Origin: Candidatus Methanosuratincola verstraetei
GTDB lineage: Archaea; Thermoproteota; Methanomethylicia; Methanomethylicales; Methanomethylicaceae
Length of the DNA: 64,000 nucleotides
Assembly (NCBI GenBank): GCA_049570475.1
Contig: CP186953.1
Span: 1,440,080-1,504,079 of the forward strand
Direction: 5' to 3'
The notes under the pieces were generated by a model. The model saw nothing but the letters and a program-made list of their open reading frames with translations. It was not told where the DNA came from and did no database searches. Positions 3,054 through 46,004 of this stretch are shown here, piece after piece (the first letter of the stretch is position 1; each line of letters opens with the position of its first letter). The position numbers and the translations under genes are program-made.

Positions 3054-3737
3054 TCATGGCGATCCGCCGATCAGGTACTCCGTCGGGTCCTTGACGCCGG
3101 CCTCGGCAAAAGCCCTTTTCCTGTTCTCGCAGGACTCGCAGGACCCGCAGTGGATCTCCCCGTCCCGGTAGCAGCTCCAGGTGAGCTCGAACGGGACGCC
3201 TAGCCTCGCGCCAAGCCTGACGACCTCGCTCTTCTTAAGCGAGAGCAATGGGGCCTCGATTGAGATGTCGGATCCGGTCCCGAGCTTTGCAGCCCTCTCC
3301 ATCGCCTCCACGAACTCCCTCCTGCAGTCAGGGTAGTTCTCGGCGTCCGACGCATGTGCCCCGTAGAGCACATGCCTGGCGCCTATCGAGTCTGCATAGG
3401 CGACCGCCGCAGATAGGAGCACCGCGTTCCTGAACGGGACTATTATCGGCTTAGAGAACTCCCTGGTTATCTCTATCCCGCGGTCGACCAGCGAGGTGGC
3501 GCCCATGTAGAGCTCCGAGAGCCCGCTGAGGTCCACGAGCCTCCACGGGAGCCCAAGCCTTTTGGAAACCTCCCTGGCGCTCCTGATCTCGGCCCTGGCG
3601 ATCTGCCCGTAGTCGAAGGTTATCGGGAAGGCGCTGAAGCCGTTGTCTAGGGCATAGTAGAGCACCGTGGTGCTGTCGAGGCCGCCCGAGATTACTACGA
3701 CCGCGCCCTCCTTTTTGGATGCCATCCTGGATGCCAT
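3054..3737 (-). CDS. queC: 7-cyano-7-deazaguanine synthase
   Basis: PP-loop SGGLDSTT near the N-terminus; C-terminal zinc cluster CGSCESCENRKRAF; typical length. Confidence 0.85.
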   Translation of the reverse strand: MASRMASKKEGAVVVISGGLDSTTVLYYALDNGFSAFPITFDYGQIARAEIRSAREVSKRLGLPWRLVDLSGLSELYMGATSLVDRGIEITREFSKPIIVPFRNAVLLSAAVAYADSIGARHVLYGAHASDAENYPDCRREFVEAMERAAKLGTGSDISIEAPLLSLKKSEVVRLGARLGVPFELTWSCYRDGEIHCGSCESCENRKRAFAEAGVKDPTEYLIGGSP

Positions 3738-4492: not shown

Positions 4493-5392
4493 ATGCCAGG
4501 CAACTCTTCCTCCCCCCCAATCTACCCATTCCTTAAGTGGGCTGGCGGAAAGTCCCAGCTGCTGGACAACATCGTGGGGTGCATGCCGGAGGACTTCGGG
4601 ACTTACTTTGAGCCTTTCCTCGGAGGCGGCGCGCTCTTCTTCAGGCTCGTCTCGATGGGGAGGGTGAGGCGCGCCATCCTTTCAGATCTGAACAGGGACC
4701 TGATAAACTGCTATGTCGTGGTCAGGGACGAGCTCGACGCCCTGATCTCGCGGCTGGAGTACTACCAGAAGTATGTCGGAGCGAAGGACTTCTTCTACGA
4801 GGTCGCACGGCCTTCGTTCAACAAGATCAGGCTGAAGAATGGACTTGAGAAGAATGTCGAGAAGGCTGCGCTGCTGATATACCTGAACAAGACCTGCTTC
4901 AACGGGCTCTACCGAGTTAACTCGAAGGGGGAGTTCAATGTCCCTTGGGGTCGGTACGACTCCCCCTCGCTCTTCGATGAGGCGAACCTAAGGGCTGTGA
5001 GCAGGGCGCTTGATCAGAGATGGGTCGAGATAATGTGCTGCGACTACAGGGAGGCGGTGAAGCTGGCTAGAGCCGGAGACCTCGTCTACTTTGACCCTCC
5101 ATACCAACCGCTCAGCCGAACATCCTCTTTCACGCAGTACACGCCCGATTCATTCTCCGAAGAGGACCAGCGGGCGCTTGCTGAGGCATTCAGGGATCTG
5201 GACGGGAGGGGGTGCAAGGTCGTGATGAGCAACTCCTCCAGCCCGCTGGTGGAGGGTCTTTACCGCGATTACATATCAAGGGGGCAATTCAGGGTTGCGA
5301 TGGCTGCAAGGGCGATCTCGTGCCTGGGGGACGGCAGGGGGAGGATCCCGGAGTATATAATATTCAACTACCCGATGCCTCGCAATCAGTGA
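4493..5392 (+). CDS. dam: DNA adenine methyltransferase (Dam/D12 class N6-MTase)
   Basis: N-terminal motif FLKWAGGKSQL and catalytic DPPY in VYFDPPYQPLS; no restriction endonuclease ORF is adjacent. Confidence 0.85.
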   Translation: MPGNSSSPPIYPFLKWAGGKSQLLDNIVGCMPEDFGTYFEPFLGGGALFFRLVSMGRVRRAILSDLNRDLINCYVVVRDELDALISRLEYYQKYVGAKDFFYEVARPSFNKIRLKNGLEKNVEKAALLIYLNKTCFNGLYRVNSKGEFNVPWGRYDSPSLFDEANLRAVSRALDQRWVEIMCCDYREAVKLARAGDLVYFDPPYQPLSRTSSFTQYTPDSFSEEDQRALAEAFRDLDGRGCKVVMSNSSSPLVEGLYRDYISRGQFRVAMAARAISCLGDGRGRIPEYIIFNYPMPRNQ

Positions 5393-40219: not shown

Positions 40220-41821
40220 TTGCGGAACTTTGCGGCTTTGCTTCTCACAGGTCTGATGACTGGGATTTCCGTCTCCCTCTTCCTGGTGATTTTGGATTTT
40301 TCAAGCAAGGCTCTATCATCGTCTCTGCCTGCCCCACTGCTTGCCTCCTTAAGCATACCTTCTGCTTACCTCATCGTGCGCCTGCTCTCCGACTCAAAGA
40401 AGACCGGTTCCGGCGTGGACAGGTTCCTCGAAACCTACCACCTGAGGCACGGTGCGGCAACACTACGATCCACTGCGGTCAGCGCTGCCTCTTTTGACGA
40501 TGTGTCTGGGAGGTAGCGCGGGACCGGAGGGGCCAGGCTTGACAATGGGCGCAGGGATAGGCTCATGGGTTGCAAGGAGGTTTGGTCTGGATCCTGAGAA
40601 GGTGAAGCGCCTCTACATCACGGGCGCCGCCTCTGGCATCGCTGCAATCTTCAGGGCTCCCCTCACCGGAACTGTCTTCGCGCTCGAGATACCGTACATG
40701 TATGACATGGAAACCGGCGTCTTTGTCTCATCGCTCATTGCTGTTGTAGTCTCCTATGCCTTCACCGTGATCTGCCTCGGCACCGAGCAGCTTTTCCTTT
40801 CCAGTCGGGGACAATCGAAATTACCCCTGATCTTCTGGTCAACTCAGTGGCAGTGGGCTTGATCTCAGCCGCCGTTTCCTTTGCCTTCATTAGCCTCTTC
40901 AAGGCGCTGAAGGCGCAGGCGAATCGCACCAAGTCCGCCCTAGTTCCTTTGGCCGGGGGCAGCGCCTTGGCTGCAATCTCGTTTGCATTCCCAGAAGTGC
41001 TTCGGACCGGCTTTGAGACAATAAAGGGGATAGGCAGCGGGACAATCCCGATCACCCTCTCCTTTGCCGTCGCACTGCTCGTGATGAAGATGCTCGCCAC
41101 CTCTGTTACCCTATCGACTGGCGGATCGGGCGGGCTTTTCCTGCCTTGTATTTTCATGGGCGTGACGCTGGGGGAGGCTTACTCGATAATAACGGGACAT
41201 CCTGATAGTGCGGTGTTCGTCGCTGCTGCTGTCGCCGGGGTGTTTGCAGCCACGAATAAGGCGCTCCTGACCTCGATCCTGTTGGTAAGCGAGACCTTCG
41301 GACCTGTGGTCCTCCTCCCCTCGATAGTCGCAGCCTCGATCTCTTTCCTGATAACAAAAGACCGCTCAATTCACGATCACCAGCTCCTTAGGAGGGTCAC
41401 CAAGAAAGAGATGGCCCTCGAGATGTTCAGCCACAGGATGGGGAACCGGATAAAGGGGGTCAGGGTTGACAGGATCATGGTTTCCAAGCCGGCTGCAATC
41501 GACTCAGGCGCTACTGTGGGCGAGACTCTCGAAACGCTCAAAAAATTCGGATACCGCGTGATGCCGGTGGTTTCGGGGAGGACTTACGTTGGTTACGTTA
41601 CACTGGACATCTTGCTGGTGGAGGAGAAGGAGAAGCCCGTTTCAGAGGTAGTGGTCTTTTCTGATCCCGTCATGCCGGATGAGACTTTGGATCGTCTAGT
41701 TATGCGTATCCTCAACACTGAGGAAACACATGTCTATGTCACGGACGCCGAGTCCAATTTGCTGGGCGTCGTGACCCAGAGCGACATAATCAAAGCCGTC
41801 TTTGAACTTGGGGATCAATGA
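40220..41821 (+). pseudogene. ClC chloride channel with C-terminal CBS pair, interrupted by two frameshifts
   Basis: ClC motifs GSGV, GPEGP and GTVFALEIP, then TM helices and two CBS domains, are spread over three consecutive ORFs in three frames (40220..40516, 40452..40862, 40847..41821). Confidence 0.5.
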
Positions 41822-42545
41822 AGAACGGATTTTGCAGCGGCTGGTAGTCGACAGCGATTGGCTGCAGATCAATCTCCCTGGCCGCCCCCTCCAGTACGCT
41901 GATCAGGTCCATGGGCTTGCAGAGGAAATAGTCCGGCCTTTCATCCCGGGTCTCAAAGAAATTGCAGTCCCCGTAACTGGCGTATGCAGCCTTCATGCCT
42001 ATGCACTTTGCAGCCTTGATGTCCCGCTGTATGCTGTCGCCGACGAATAGGGCCTCCTCCGGTCCGACCCCCAGCAGGCTCAGCGCAACCTCCAGGTGCC
42101 GCGGATCGGGCTTTACCCATTCGGTATCATCCGCACTGACGATCACGTCGAAGTATTGCCTCAGGCGGGTCCTCTCCATCCTTATCGCTGCGTTCGCCCT
42201 CCTGGCATTGGTGACCAGGGCGGTCCTTATGCCCATGTTCCGGAGTATCCTTAGCATCTGGTCCACCCCTTCATAGGGCTTTATCAAGTCGAGCTTTGTC
42301 CTGTCGTAGACCTCGCAGCACTCGAAGTAGAGGTCAAAGTCATAGATTCCAAGGCTTGCCATGTACTCCGCGATCACTGAAAAGCCCTCGTATTCCCCCT
42401 TGCTCCTGATGAACAGATCCAGGAGTTCGAGCCCATTGCCCCTGCCCAACCGGGCCGCCACCGCCCTGCATGCCCCGACCTGCGCATACACGAAGTCCAT
42501 CAGCGTGTTGTCCATGTCAAAGAGCACTGCCTTTATGCTACTCAA
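41790..42545 (-). CDS. HAD-superfamily hydrolase (phosphoglycolate phosphatase-like)
   Basis: Motif I LFDMDNTL, motif III K, motif IV GDSIQRD. Confidence 0.7.
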   Translation of the reverse strand: MSSIKAVLFDMDNTLMDFVYAQVGACRAVAARLGRGNGLELLDLFIRSKGEYEGFSVIAEYMASLGIYDFDLYFECCEVYDRTKLDLIKPYEGVDQMLRILRNMGIRTALVTNARRANAAIRMERTRLRQYFDVIVSADDTEWVKPDPRHLEVALSLLGVGPEEALFVGDSIQRDIKAAKCIGMKAAYASYGDCNFFETRDERPDYFLCKPMDLISVLEGAAREIDLQPIAVDYQPLQNPFFIDPQVQRRL

Positions 42546-43552
42546 CCCTTGAACCCCAACCCTATCAGCTCTCTGCAGGCTTCCAGGTCTTTCTTAAACC
42601 CATCGGCTACCTTTTCATCGAGGAAGAGTGCCTTGAGTTGCTCCGTGTCCCTCTTGCCCCTGAACTCACCGTAAATTACGGCGGAGTTCATCTTGATCAA
42701 TGCCAGCACGCTTGCAAGGTCGGCTATCAGCCTGCACAGCTGCGATCCTGTGCATGATGACTCGCGCGGGATCTCCTTTGGCATCTCGAACAGGAAGTGG
42801 TCGATGCCCTCGGCGTCGCAGATGTCAGTCATCGCGGCGTCTGCGGTTAGCATGACGATCTGTGCGTTCCTCTCGCGGGCGCATTTCGAGACGGTCCTGG
42901 CTATTATCCTGTCCCCCTCCCCCTCTTCGCCAGTGAACCTCTCCGATGCCTCGACTGATATGGCTGCTGCAAGCGCCTTCAGCTCCTTGTTCGCGAACCT
43001 GTATGCCTTCCTCGACTTTTTCATCCTCCTGTTCACCAGCTCGTCCAGCATCCACCTATCGTACGGCGCCGCTTTCTTCATCTGGATTACCTGTTCCTGC
43101 GTGTACTTGTAGTTGTGGACGCTCGTTATCTCGTCCCTGACCGTGCTGACTATGATGCAATCCTTCGGGTCAAGCAGCCCTATGTTGGAGACAAACCTCC
43201 TGTATATTACGTTGGTGTCAAGCGCGAAGAGTGTGTTCTTGTGCGCCCTGTACGCCTTTAGCTTCTCCCTGAATTCCTCCATGTTCGCGAAGCCCAGTAT
43301 CCCGCTGCTCATCATGCACTCGAGGATGTCTGCATACGAGGGCCCCTCGAGGTACGGATCTTCATCCTTTATTCCGAAAGATTCTGGTGTGAGGGATGTG
43401 GACAGCCTGTATTTTCCGTTGAAGCTTGCGCATCTGAAGAGCGGAATGTGGGTGATCGGGTAGGCGAGATCTAAATCCCCAGCGAATAGGTTCACGAGTA
43501 TCTGGATCTCTTCCTCGTTCAGGGTTAATGAGGGCCTGCTTGCTGAGCTCAC
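42542..43552 (-). CDS. PIN-domain nuclease with N-terminal (about 100 aa) and C-terminal extra domains
   Basis: PIN acidic tetrad context FALDTNVIY / VRDEITS / LTADAAMTD / DAEGID; its start overlaps the upstream CARF-like ORF by 4 nt. Confidence 0.45.
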   Translation of the reverse strand: MSSASRPSLTLNEEEIQILVNLFAGDLDLAYPITHIPLFRCASFNGKYRLSTSLTPESFGIKDEDPYLEGPSYADILECMMSSGILGFANMEEFREKLKAYRAHKNTLFALDTNVIYRRFVSNIGLLDPKDCIIVSTVRDEITSVHNYKYTQEQVIQMKKAAPYDRWMLDELVNRRMKKSRKAYRFANKELKALAAAISVEASERFTGEEGEGDRIIARTVSKCARERNAQIVMLTADAAMTDICDAEGIDHFLFEMPKEIPRESSCTGSQLCRLIADLASVLALIKMNSAVIYGEFRGKRDTEQLKALFLDEKVADGFKKDLEACRELIGLGFKG

Positions 43553-44034
43553 TGCTTCCCCACACCCGCCTCTTCAATGAAGTCTCGGAGGGTCTGCCTG
43601 CCCAGCGGGATCATCATGTAGGGCTTTGCGGAGTCGCTGGTGTCGTCTATCTGCAGGTAAAATATGTGATCGACCCCGACGTTATTCAACGGCACCAGCG
43701 CCCCGGCCACTAGGGCCTTCCTCCCTGGGGTTATGTCCACGGCAATCTTATTTCCAGAAGCCTTCCATTCCTTGATGATCTCGGTTATCTTTCTGCCCGC
43801 CTCGATGAAGCCCCCGTCCCTGACAATTTCGCTCCGTATCTCCGGCTGGAAGCCGTATTTGGCTGAGACTGCCCTGATGCCGGCTGAAGCCGCTTCTAGA
43901 CCATCAGCAGTGCCCTCTTCCGCGAATATGACGACCTCATCCGGCTGGTAGTCCCTTTCCCTTACCACTGCGTAGTACGAATTCACCAGTGCCCATCCGC
44001 TCCTCCCCAGCATCGTGATGTATTTGCACCCCAA
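43549..44034 (-). CDS. Minimal stand-alone CARF-like Rossmann sensor domain protein
   Basis: 161 aa; N-terminal strand-Gly ITMLGRSGWALV and the D-x-T-P/G-G-x-K-like motif VDITPGRKALVAGAL resemble CARF core motifs; no effector domain fused. Confidence 0.35.
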   Translation of the reverse strand: MGCKYITMLGRSGWALVNSYYAVVRERDYQPDEVVIFAEEGTADGLEAASAGIRAVSAKYGFQPEIRSEIVRDGGFIEAGRKITEIIKEWKASGNKIAVDITPGRKALVAGALVPLNNVGVDHIFYLQIDDTSDSAKPYMMIPLGRQTLRDFIEEAGVGKQ

Positions 44035-44173
44035 TCAGAACAGCCTCCTGGTCAGACGCTTGGCCCTTCGCCCTGCAAATCCAAGGTGCCGGGCGGATCC
44101 TCTGCACCCGCGCGCCGATTGATCCGATCCGGCTCCTGGCTTAGGTCCATCCTTATCCCGGGTCATGTTCTCA

Positions 44174-44443
44174 TCATCTCCTTCTGCCCTTTGCGCTCTT
44201 CAGGCTTTGCCCAACTGGGGCCTTTCCAGCCATGATGATCCATGAGCCTTTCAGGCTGCCGCCGCAGATTGGGCAGCCGCGCCTCTTGCATGCCGGGCAG
44301 ACCCTCGCCCTGGTGCCGCAAGTTGTGCACTCAGCTTCGACAACAGGAAGGCAATCGCGCCCCTCTATCATCCTCCCGCAAAATTCACAAGAAGAGAACG
44401 TTATGAACAACGGGACCACCGGAAACATGTCTCTCGCCATCAA
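44174..44443 (-). CDS. Small double zinc-ribbon protein
   Basis: Four CxxC pairs (CEFC, CTTC, CPAC, CPIC) in under 90 aa, with a basic tail. Confidence 0.35.
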   Translation of the reverse strand: MMARDMFPVVPLFITFSSCEFCGRMIEGRDCLPVVEAECTTCGTRARVCPACKRRGCPICGGSLKGSWIIMAGKAPVGQSLKSAKGRRR

Positions 44444-44479
44444 TATTTAAATATGATTTATTTAATTTGTTTAATATAT

Positions 44480-45247
44480 TTAATTTTGGGATCGGGCTTC
44501 GAAGCCATTGATCAGCAAGGTGTTCCTGCCCTTCTCCGTAAGACGTACCTTGCTGTTCCTCCCCCTCCCGTCCACCACCAGCAATTCCTTCTCCTCAAGC
44601 GGCCTGATGTACCTGCTCTCTAGTATGACATGCCCGTATGGCTTTGACTTGCCTTCAACCGAGAAGAGGCCCTTCTCCAGGCAGCTCTTCAGCAGCTGGC
44701 TCTTCTTGGGATCTCTTAACTGGTCCACCAGGACAAGGAAGTTCAACTCATCTGGCGTAGGCAGGTCGATCGAGTAGTGCGGCACTATCTCGATCTTGGA
44801 GAGGCCAGCCGAGTTCTGCGCCCTATTGGGATCTACTACCTCGATGTACCTCTCAGGGTAGGCGTAGTAGGCGCTCACGCCCTTCTTGAATGTGAGTGTT
44901 GCGAAGTGGCATGCGACACCCTGTATCGACCCTCCCGAGGATATGTTCACGAAAACATGGTTTCCGGATTCCAGCTCCCCCTCTATTATCTTCCTGCATG
45001 TGTAGATCAGCTTGAATAGGTCCAGCTCTGCCCTGTGGATCTGGTACGGCTTCTGCGCCCTTTCAAGCTCTTCGACTATCCTCTCTTGGCAATTGAGACC
45101 CCTCTGGTTGCTGTCCTGCCTGACAATCAGGTGGATCCTCTCTCCTTTCATCATCATGAACGGGAGAACGACCCTGTCGATCTCGAAGCCAACCGGCGCG
45201 ATGTGGGCCCTCTCAGGGAACCTTCCATTGGCGATGCTTTGAGACAT
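44480..45247 (-). CDS. Csa3-like CARF plus winged-HTH transcriptional regulator
   Basis: N-terminal HIAPVGFEIDRVVLPF resembles the Csa3 VTLGFDE start; Gly-rich NISSGGSIQG loop; C-terminal wHTH ...RNSKVRLTEKGRNTL. Confidence 0.4.
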   Translation of the reverse strand: MSQSIANGRFPERAHIAPVGFEIDRVVLPFMMMKGERIHLIVRQDSNQRGLNCQERIVEELERAQKPYQIHRAELDLFKLIYTCRKIIEGELESGNHVFVNISSGGSIQGVACHFATLTFKKGVSAYYAYPERYIEVVDPNRAQNSAGLSKIEIVPHYSIDLPTPDELNFLVLVDQLRDPKKSQLLKSCLEKGLFSVEGKSKPYGHVILESRYIRPLEEKELLVVDGRGRNSKVRLTEKGRNTLLINGFEARSQN

Positions 45248-45302
45248 AAATTAAGTATGCTTAATAATTTATTTATGTTTATTCTATAAGTAGGCCAAAA
45301 GG

Positions 45303-46004
45303 GTGGGCTGCTTGGGCAACCTCAAGGCGATAGTCGACGAGTACATGAGCATGGCGCGGGGCATAGACGAAATGTGCACCCGGTGCCTGAGGACCGAGCG
45401 ATGGGGCGGCAGCGTCACCCTGATGGTCGTGGACGCCGCATTCACGTCGATAGGGCTGAACTATTTCACGGCAGTCGTGCCGAAGGTTGACTATTTCAGG
45501 AGGGAGTTCGTGGAGGCTGGGCGAATCAAAACGCTAAAGGATCTGGCAGAGTCCGGCACCGACGAACTGCTGGAGGTCTGGAGGAACCGGAGGTCCTGGG
45601 AGGCTGCGCGGGGGATCGCGTCTTACCTCTCCGCCCTCCCCTACGGGACAGACCGGGAAGCGCTCAGGTCTTGGGCCAGATCGTCTTCCCTGGTAAACTG
45701 GAGGCTGGACCCCGTTGGGCGCATAAGAGGGGTCGGGCTCGTCACATACCAGTACCTCAGGATGATGGGGGGCGTCGACACGGTGATGCCGGACAAGATC
45801 GTGAAGCGCGTGATAAACGAGATGCTTGTCAAAGCCGGAGAGGAACCAGTAGAGGACAATTTGGCGTTCATATTGAAGGCGGAGGAGATCGCCAAGCGGA
45901 CGGGGTACCGCCCGATCGACCTCTGCTGGATGACCTGGATGATCCAGCCCGAGGGGAAGATCATGAGGATGGACAAGTACTCGGGATTGCTCCACATGAT
46001 CTGA
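45303..46004 (+). CDS. Helix-hairpin-helix protein, possible HhH-GPD-like DNA glycosylase fold
   Basis: IRGVGLVTYQYLRMMGGVDTVMPDKIVKRV resembles the LPGVG..TA....VDTHv.Rv HhH element of EndoIII-like glycosylases; the catalytic residues are not clearly identifiable. Confidence 0.25.
   Translation: MGCLGNLKAIVDEYMSMARGIDEMCTRCLRTERWGGSVTLMVVDAAFTSIGLNYFTAVVPKVDYFRREFVEAGRIKTLKDLAESGTDELLEVWRNRRSWEAARGIASYLSALPYGTDREALRSWARSSSLVNWRLDPVGRIRGVGLVTYQYLRMMGGVDTVMPDKIVKRVINEMLVKAGEEPVEDNLAFILKAEEIAKRTGYRPIDLCWMTWMIQPEGKIMRMDKYSGLLHMI

Follow-up and report, generated by a model that had tools for sequence, protein, structure and literature searches.

We find that three genes on the minus strand of a 64,000-nucleotide (nt) stretch of the Candidatus Methanosuratincola verstraetei genome (contig CP186953.1, positions 1,440,080 to 1,504,079; hereafter the window) form one copy of a widespread and already catalogued archaeal operon, in which a stand-alone CARF sensor of the CARF_m1 clade, a PIN RNase and a HAD phosphatase are translationally coupled. 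We regard this finding as solid and moderately new, not categorically new. For the function we favor, with a probability of roughly 0.5, a ligand-gated, stress- or defence-linked RNase module in which the CARF sensor and the PIN effector are split over two polypeptides. Numbered along the window, the conserved core (41790-44034) consists of the following genes, with lengths in amino acids (aa):

43549..44034, minus strand: CARF_m1 sensor, 161 aa, a stand-alone CARF domain (PADLOC PDLC01971, AlphaFold2 model, Foldseek)
42542..43552, minus strand: PIN RNase partner, 336 aa (Pfam PIN_4, conserved acidic residues)
41790..42545, minus strand: HAD subfamily IA phosphatase, 251 aa, third coupled gene of the core (Pfam HAD_2, 2.5e-30; TTGA overlap)

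An initial annotation of this DNA had described four co-directional minus-strand open reading frames (ORFs) as a tight unit, namely a regulator (44480-45247, 255 aa), a small protein with four CxxC pairs (44174-44443, 89 aa), a CARF protein without an effector domain (43549-44034) and a multidomain PIN nuclease (42542-43552), and we verified all four at exactly these coordinates. As orthologues with 58-100% identity are present in other Methanosuratincola and Methanomethylicia genomes, we consider these ORFs to be genes and not chance ORFs, and a PIN protein 100% identical to that of the window is found on an NCBI contig from a metagenome-assembled genome (MAG). Sensor and nuclease are separate and coupled as had been proposed, the stop codon of the CARF_m1 gene and the GTG start of the PIN gene overlapping by 4 nt as GTGA (43552-43549). 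The HAD gene lies directly downstream of the PIN gene, and its TTG start overlaps the PIN stop codon in the same manner (TTGA, 4 nt).

Scanning a single genome for each species, we detected relatives of the module in no fewer than 173 species-level archaeal genomes, among them the complete genome of Ca. Methanosuratincola petrocarbonis (CP130488.1), and retrieved 80 loci; our comparison set consists of 86 loci, against which the window proteins were searched by tblastn. The PIN gene lies directly downstream of the CARF_m1 gene in 84 of these loci, both exceptions being contig ends, and the HAD gene follows directly after the PIN gene in 74. The proposed four-gene unit therefore holds for its CARF_m1-PIN core, whereas it omitted the HAD phosphatase and included a Zn-ribbon gene that is confined to Methanomethylicia.

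The 161-aa protein is a true CARF domain of the CARF_m1 clade and carries no effector domain. It matches the PADLOC profile PDLC01971 'CARF_m1--CARF' with an E-value of 2.2e-56 over nearly its full length (residues 4-156 against positions 3-154 of the 156 in the model), and the 'CARF_m1--CARF_PIN' profile in the N-terminal third (5e-22); in Pfam the match was to Csa3_N alone, below threshold. Its AlphaFold2 model has a predicted local distance difference test score (pLDDT) of 88.4 and a predicted template modelling score of 0.85. When this model was compared with the PDB by Foldseek, all 50 matches listed were CARF proteins (all E ≤ 5.4e-4), with Cam1, TtCsm6, Can2, Sis0811, Csa3, Sis0455 and Sso2081 at the top, which rules out that the protein is a fragment of a metabolic Rossmann enzyme. 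Sequence searches of the PDB with the single proteins gave nothing useful. A search with the CARF_m1 profile did return TAL effectors with a whole-sequence E-value of 2e-6; we regard this as a repeat artefact and not as homology, since these scores are sums over numerous weak matches between the repeats and the segment 'pdeivilaee..lekvkegl' and no single stretch is significant.

The ligand pocket of this sensor is strongly conserved. The CARF motifs G-x-S/T after beta1 and D-x-T-x-G-x-K after beta4 are both present, and among 19 diverse members G10, S12, T102, G104 and K106 are invariant, while R11, D100 and R105 are found in at least 90%. The Crn1 ring nucleases (Sis0455/Sso2081 and Sis0811/Sso1393) are likewise small stand-alone CARF proteins, and G10-R11-S12 of CARF_m1 aligns with G9-T10-S11 of Sis0455, as D100-I-T-P-G104-R105-K106 does with D-I-T-G-G104-R105-K106. 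In Sis0455, R105 and K106 are essential for binding and cleavage of cyclic tetra-adenylate (cA4), and S11 contacts the phosphates (PMC9638899). By this alignment, CARF_m1 keeps the Ser/Arg/Lys triad by which Crn1 ring nucleases bind and cleave cA4. Unlike these proteins, CARF_m1 has neither a C-terminal insertion nor a winged helix-turn-helix domain, and it always comes with a PIN RNase, either as a separate partner or as a fusion, and does not lie next to CRISPR loci.

The 336-aa partner is a PIN RNase, with its activity predicted from sequence and model. It scores above the Pfam PIN_4 cut-off (24.3 bits against 21.9) and matches positions 227-445, the C-terminal two thirds, of the 'CARF_m1--CARF_PIN' profile (9e-16). 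The four acidic residues D112, E141, D214 and D238 are invariant in 71 of 71 sequences, as are T113 and N114. In agreement with the multidomain nuclease that had been described, the AlphaFold2 model (pLDDT 79.8) shows a beta-rich N-terminal domain, in which several residues are at least 93% conserved in the same 71 sequences (E15, Q17, N21, P32, D75 and N90 are among the conserved N-terminal positions), a PIN core (approximately residues 107-254) and a C-terminal alpha/beta domain. Profile and structural comparison led us to reject the housekeeping nucleases Nob1 and Fcf1/Utp24 as its identity; the PIN domains of Rrp44/Dis3 are also among its better structural matches.

The solved structure nearest to the PIN protein is that of SiRe_0806 from Sulfolobus islandicus, a fused CARF-PIN protein bound to cA4 (PDB 9jxw and 9jxx). 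The two have an architecture in common that extends beyond the PIN core, and the sequence identity between SiRe_0806 and the locus proteins is only about 12-14%. In SiRe_0806 sensor and nuclease form one polypeptide, whereas here they are two coupled ORFs, accompanied by HAD (and beta-CASP) partners and without the cas linkage of the SiRe_0806-type proteins. Fused CARF-PIN proteins of Sulfolobales are associated with type III loci (PMC6546367), and the type III-associated 'CARF+PIN' proteins ST0035 and Msed_1167 are probably related to the SiRe_0806 group. Whole-gene fusions of CARF_m1 and PIN also occur naturally among the relatives of the window locus (P0131, P0184, P0189 and P0211). Because the two genes are adjacent in nearly all loci and fused in some organisms, we conclude that they form a functional pair, as the initial annotation had supposed.

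CARF_m1 homologues numbered at least 100 at E ≤ 0.001, and the module is found in Methanomethylicia, Archaeoglobi, Methanomicrobiales, Methanosarcinaceae, Thermoplasmata, Thermococci and Bathyarchaeia, as well as in Helarchaeota, which were added by an exact-protein look-up. The locus had been regarded as an orphan island; the comparison instead points to an operon that is inherited largely vertically. One locus labelled as a Spirochaetota bacterium (L071) carries the full archaeal-type set of beta-CASP, CARF_m1, PIN, HAD and CARF3 genes, and in the PIN tree its branch is sister to one from Methanoregulaceae; this is probably a mis-binned archaeal contig.

The suggestion that the module was previously uncharacterised holds in one sense and fails in another. 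PADLOC-DB v2 already contains the two CARF_m1 profiles used above, which presumably stem from the 2020 CARF/SAVED classification of Makarova et al., and the window locus is a member of this clade in which nothing defining differs. We found no experimental study of the CARF_m1 family in the literature searched. Nor did we find in it a description of the HAD and beta-CASP partners, the vertical inheritance or the defence-gene insertions described below, which may exist elsewhere. In the same literature, SiRe_0806 is not mentioned, and neither is Methanosuratincola in connection with CRISPR.

Two further enzymes accompany the pair. Judged by its profile matches and motifs, the 251-aa protein is a phosphatase of the HAD superfamily, subfamily IA: it scores 106 bits against Pfam HAD_2 and a comparison of 48 sequences shows its catalytic motifs D10-x-D12-x-T14, T112, K145 and D170/D175 to be conserved, with a score against TIGR02253 (121) that is below the cut-off of 170. 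When the flanking ORFs were clustered, a fourth partner emerged, which is approximately 510 aa long and encoded in 30 of the 86 loci, usually 3-35 nt upstream of CARF_m1. On the basis of a Lactamase_B_2 domain, a weak RMMBL match and a match to TIGR00649 (6.6e-20, below cut-off), it is a predicted divergent RNase J-like beta-CASP nuclease. In a locus from a sister lineage (L013) the gene order is regulator, Zn-ribbon, beta-CASP, CARF_m1, PIN and HAD. Methanosuratincola is without the beta-CASP gene and has a GC-rich gap of 139 nt at this position, and we found no copy elsewhere in the 64-kb window.

We propose that CARF_m1, presumably a dimer like other CARF proteins, would bind a cA4-like oligoadenylate through a pocket formed by Ser12, Arg105 and Lys106. 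The signal would be made elsewhere in the genome. The liganded sensor would then contact the 336-aa partner and turn on its metal-dependent PIN RNase, so that RNA is degraded for as long as the signal is present. As the pocket matches that of the Crn1 ring nucleases, CARF_m1 may also cleave its own ligand and in this way limit the response. The probable substrate of the HAD phosphatase is a small phosphorylated product, which could be nucleotides released by RNA decay or what is left of the ligand after its breakdown, and where the beta-CASP nuclease is present both enzymes would process the products. The likeliest role of such a module would be RNA decay triggered by infection or stress.

Several observations weigh against this proposal and in favor of a housekeeping RNA-turnover operon, in which the beta-CASP RNase, the PIN protein and a HAD nucleotidase would serve CRISPR-independent RNA decay and salvage with no part in immune signalling; we consider this possible, and less probable than the gated module. 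CARF_m1 would then sense an endogenous RNA-derived ligand, such as oligonucleotides or 2',3'-cyclic phosphate ends. There is precedent for this in RtcR, the CARF domain of which has been described as responding to such a ligand (PMC7790460). The neighbour-joining tree of the PIN proteins is congruent with taxonomy, which is unusual for defence systems, the module is present in a large number of species, and a search of 2.9 million viral contigs found no relatives. Its partner proteins are enzymes of RNA and nucleotide metabolism, and we know of no cyclic oligoadenylate effector for which HAD and beta-CASP partners would be typical.

The genomic surroundings add to these points, and no cas linkage was seen in the window and flanks examined. 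Searches of the window for a CRISPR array, tRNA genes and Rfam RNAs found none, in agreement with the initial annotation as regards the array; Cas10, Csm/Cmr and CD-NTase proteins are absent among the 25 of 43 matched PADLOC families listed for the 60 other window ORFs, the listed families comprising just Dam-like methyltransferase, QueC and generic ATPase matches. The Pfam neighbourhood of the window is metabolic (cobalamin synthesis, transporters, MsrB and Nre). Around the other loci, Cas10, Cas3 and Cas8 are absent among the 25 of 242 matched families listed for 76 large flanking ORFs, and a CRISPR array is found near the module in a single one of the 86 loci (L077). The flanks of the Methanoculleus loci are stable and non-defence. 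In Helarchaeota (L005/L006, 6001-7480) the CARF_m1-PIN pair, without a HAD gene, even sits inside the exosome superoperon, in the order proteasome alpha, SBDS, Rrp4, Rrp41, Rrp42, CARF_m1-PIN and L37ae. A last point against cA4 gating comes from the Sulfolobus CARF-PIN protein ST0035, which binds cA4 weakly and is not activated by it (PMC6546367).

On the other side, each residue of the CARF_m1 pocket matches its counterpart in the cA4-binding ring nucleases, the most similar solved structure has cA4 bound, and the Helarchaeota evidence comes from two near-identical MAGs. Furthermore, defence genes lie repeatedly in or beside the operon in Archaeoglobi and Thermoplasmata. Five Archaeoglobus loci (L001, 2537-5999; L012, L015, L020 and L025) carry a co-directional pair of McrB (AAA_5) and McrC genes between the beta-CASP and CARF_m1 genes, the insertion ending directly ahead of the CARF_m1 start, and in a Thermoplasmatales locus (L032) a PbeC/DndD gene (7e-102) occupies the same gap. 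Elsewhere, a pAgo gene is located 1.3 kb upstream (L038), and genes for Mokosh-like and NERD-UvrD helicases lie directly ahead of the beta-CASP gene (L068). The gap between the beta-CASP and CARF_m1 genes thus resembles a hotspot at which defence genes enter the operon.

In the locus with the CRISPR-like array (L077, 33-2503, 26 repeats), the array adjoins a CARF3-family gene (PDLC01862, 1e-105). The module follows 4.5 kb downstream, and the interval between array and module gave no cas hits.

A related and equally tentative idea is that the CARF_m1-PIN-HAD genes, with or without the beta-CASP gene, encode a CRISPR-independent and largely vertically inherited 'gated degradosome', in which an oligonucleotide second messenger or an RNA-end signal would control core RNA decay across many archaea.

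We think it unlikely that the main task of CARF_m1 is to end cyclic oligoadenylate signalling as Crn1 does, acting alone as a ring nuclease or signal sponge, with PIN as an independently regulated operon-mate. The size and the Ser/Arg/Lys pocket of CARF_m1 do resemble those of the small ring nucleases Sis0455 and Sso2081, and an effector domain is missing from it as well. Against this stand the whole-gene CARF_m1-PIN fusions, the near-universal adjacency with 4-nt overlaps, the structural resemblance, extending past the PIN core, of the PIN protein to a fused CARF-PIN protein, and the C-terminal insertion of the small ring nucleases, which CARF_m1 does not have. A toxin-antitoxin-like pair, in which a VapC-like PIN toxin is restrained by a CARF_m1 antitoxin and causes abortive infection without a nucleotide ligand, is highly improbable: CARF_m1 has no DNA-binding antitoxin fold and its ligand pocket is invariant, the PIN protein is rejected as a VapC by its 336 aa and three domains (VapC has about 130 aa) and by the CARF nature of its upstream partner, the family is single-copy-like and vertically inherited, and HAD and beta-CASP partners are not seen in toxin-antitoxin modules.

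Upstream of the core in the window lie two accessory genes and two candidate control regions:

44174..44443, minus strand: double Zn-ribbon protein, 89 aa, four CxxC pairs, lineage-specific accessory (CxxC pattern)
44480..45247, minus strand: CARF3/HFX_2341-family CARF and winged-helix transcription regulator, 255 aa (Pfam, PADLOC CARF3)
44444..44479, minus strand: AT-rich spacer with TAAATAAAT at 44456-44464, candidate TATA element/promoter for Zn-ribbon-CARF_m1-PIN-HAD
45248..45302, minus strand: AT-rich spacer with TAAATAAAT at 45267-45275 and a palindrome, candidate promoter/operator of the regulator

The regulator had been annotated as Csa3-type, and here our analysis leads to a different assignment. 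It scores below the cut-offs of both Csa3 (CARF7) models (TIGR01884, 24.8 bits against 60.2; PF22662 Csa3_N, 14 against 27), for which reason we reject it as Csa3 proper, and well above those of HFX_2341_N (PF19810; 84.2 bits, 1.2e-23, cut-off 30) and of the DUF6293_C winged helix (PF22665; 48.7 bits, 1.1e-12, cut-off 27), with a match to PADLOC CARF3 at 2.1e-42. These matches place the 255-aa protein in the HFX_2341/CARF3 family. It shares its Pfam architecture with HFX_2341 of Haloferax mediterranei, and its score against the HFX_2341 NCBIfam equivalog is 17 bits with a cut-off of 500. HFX_2341 itself is a vertically inherited global repressor, structurally Csa3a-like and without a genomic link to CRISPR (PMC11434293). 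The module-linked regulators carry the pocket motif N-x-S-G/S without a lysine, which differs from the CARF_m1 pocket. Such a regulator is found near the module in 9 of the 86 loci by tblastn and in 18 by an iterated profile search; these 18 belong to Archaeoglobi, Methanoregulaceae, Methanolobus and Methanomethylicia (at least four orders), and the regulator gene nearly always stands alongside the beta-CASP gene.

All four CxxC pairs of the 89-aa Zn-ribbon protein were located (C19/C22, C39/C42, C49/C52 and C57/C60), and its database matches are weak (Zn_Tnp_IS91, 4e-4, below cut-off). The gene was found by tblastn in 8 of the 86 loci, the CxxC pattern is confined to Methanomethylicia-type loci (L003/4, L007-L011, L013 and the window), and in each of them the gene separates the regulator from the (MBL-)CARF_m1 genes. 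In Methanomethylicia, the upstream CARF3/HFX_2341 regulator and the Zn-ribbon protein probably control or accompany the expression of the module.

The 9-mer TAAATAAAT occurs twice in the window (0.11 copies expected), in both cases 13-28 nt before a start codon, once upstream of the regulator gene and once upstream of the Zn-ribbon gene. All four Methanosuratincola loci examined have the element ahead of the regulator gene, and three of them also have it ahead of the Zn-ribbon gene. AT-rich spacers are present only upstream of these two genes, and there is none in the 139-nt gap before CARF_m1. Since the only AT-rich spacers and both copies of TAAATAAAT sit upstream of the regulator and Zn-ribbon genes, the sequence suggests that the regulator has a promoter of its own and that Zn-ribbon-CARF_m1-PIN-HAD are transcribed from a second one. 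Between TAAATAAAT and the ATG of the regulator (45248-45275, minus strand) lies a perfect 5-4-5 palindrome, TTAAG-CATA-CTTAA, which could be an autoregulatory operator, and the stretch ATAAATAAATTATTAAGCATACTTAA is near-identical upstream of the regulator in four other Methanosuratincola loci (L007, L008, L010 and L011).

Divergent from the regulator is an ORF of 233 aa (45303-46004, plus strand) that has no Pfam, NCBIfam or PADLOC match and is kept, at 73-84% identity, at the same position beside a DUF2284 gene in Methanosuratincola loci and in L013. At the other end of the operon, a ClC chloride-channel gene is apparently split into at least two overlapping ORFs (40220-41821, plus strand): 40452-40862 corresponds to positions 44-153 of the Voltage_CLC profile and 40847-41821 to positions 168-345 followed by a CBS domain, while 40220-40516 is a possible N-terminal piece. 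The break reflects either an error in the assembly or a frameshift that has turned the gene into a pseudogene, and the 3' end of the gene overlaps convergently with the 3' end of the HAD gene by approximately 32 nt. Further away lie a gene for a D12-class (Dam-like) N6-adenine DNA methyltransferase (PF02086, 1.4e-61; 4493-5392, plus strand), which is the sole strong defence-library match in the window, and one for QueC (3054-3737, minus strand); no restriction enzyme for the methyltransferase is among the PADLOC families listed for the window.

To our knowledge, the CARF effectors that have been characterised biochemically all carry sensor and effector on one chain and have been studied as accessories of type III CRISPR systems. 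The CARF_m1 family differs in that sensor and effector are encoded by separate, coupled genes, joined by a phosphatase gene and in many cases by one for a beta-CASP RNase, and in that the module is fixed across whole archaeal lineages away from cas genes. If its signal is cA4 produced at another site in the genome, the module would amount to a hidden but widespread branch of type III signalling. With an endogenous ligand, it would instead connect CARF sensing with everyday RNA turnover in archaea, a group in which the regulation of RNA decay is poorly understood. Should the operon encode a gated degradosome, it could represent an ancestral, non-immune use of CARF domains from which the ancillary CARF nucleases of CRISPR systems were recruited, and the nearby defence genes would then be secondary insertions at a hotspot.

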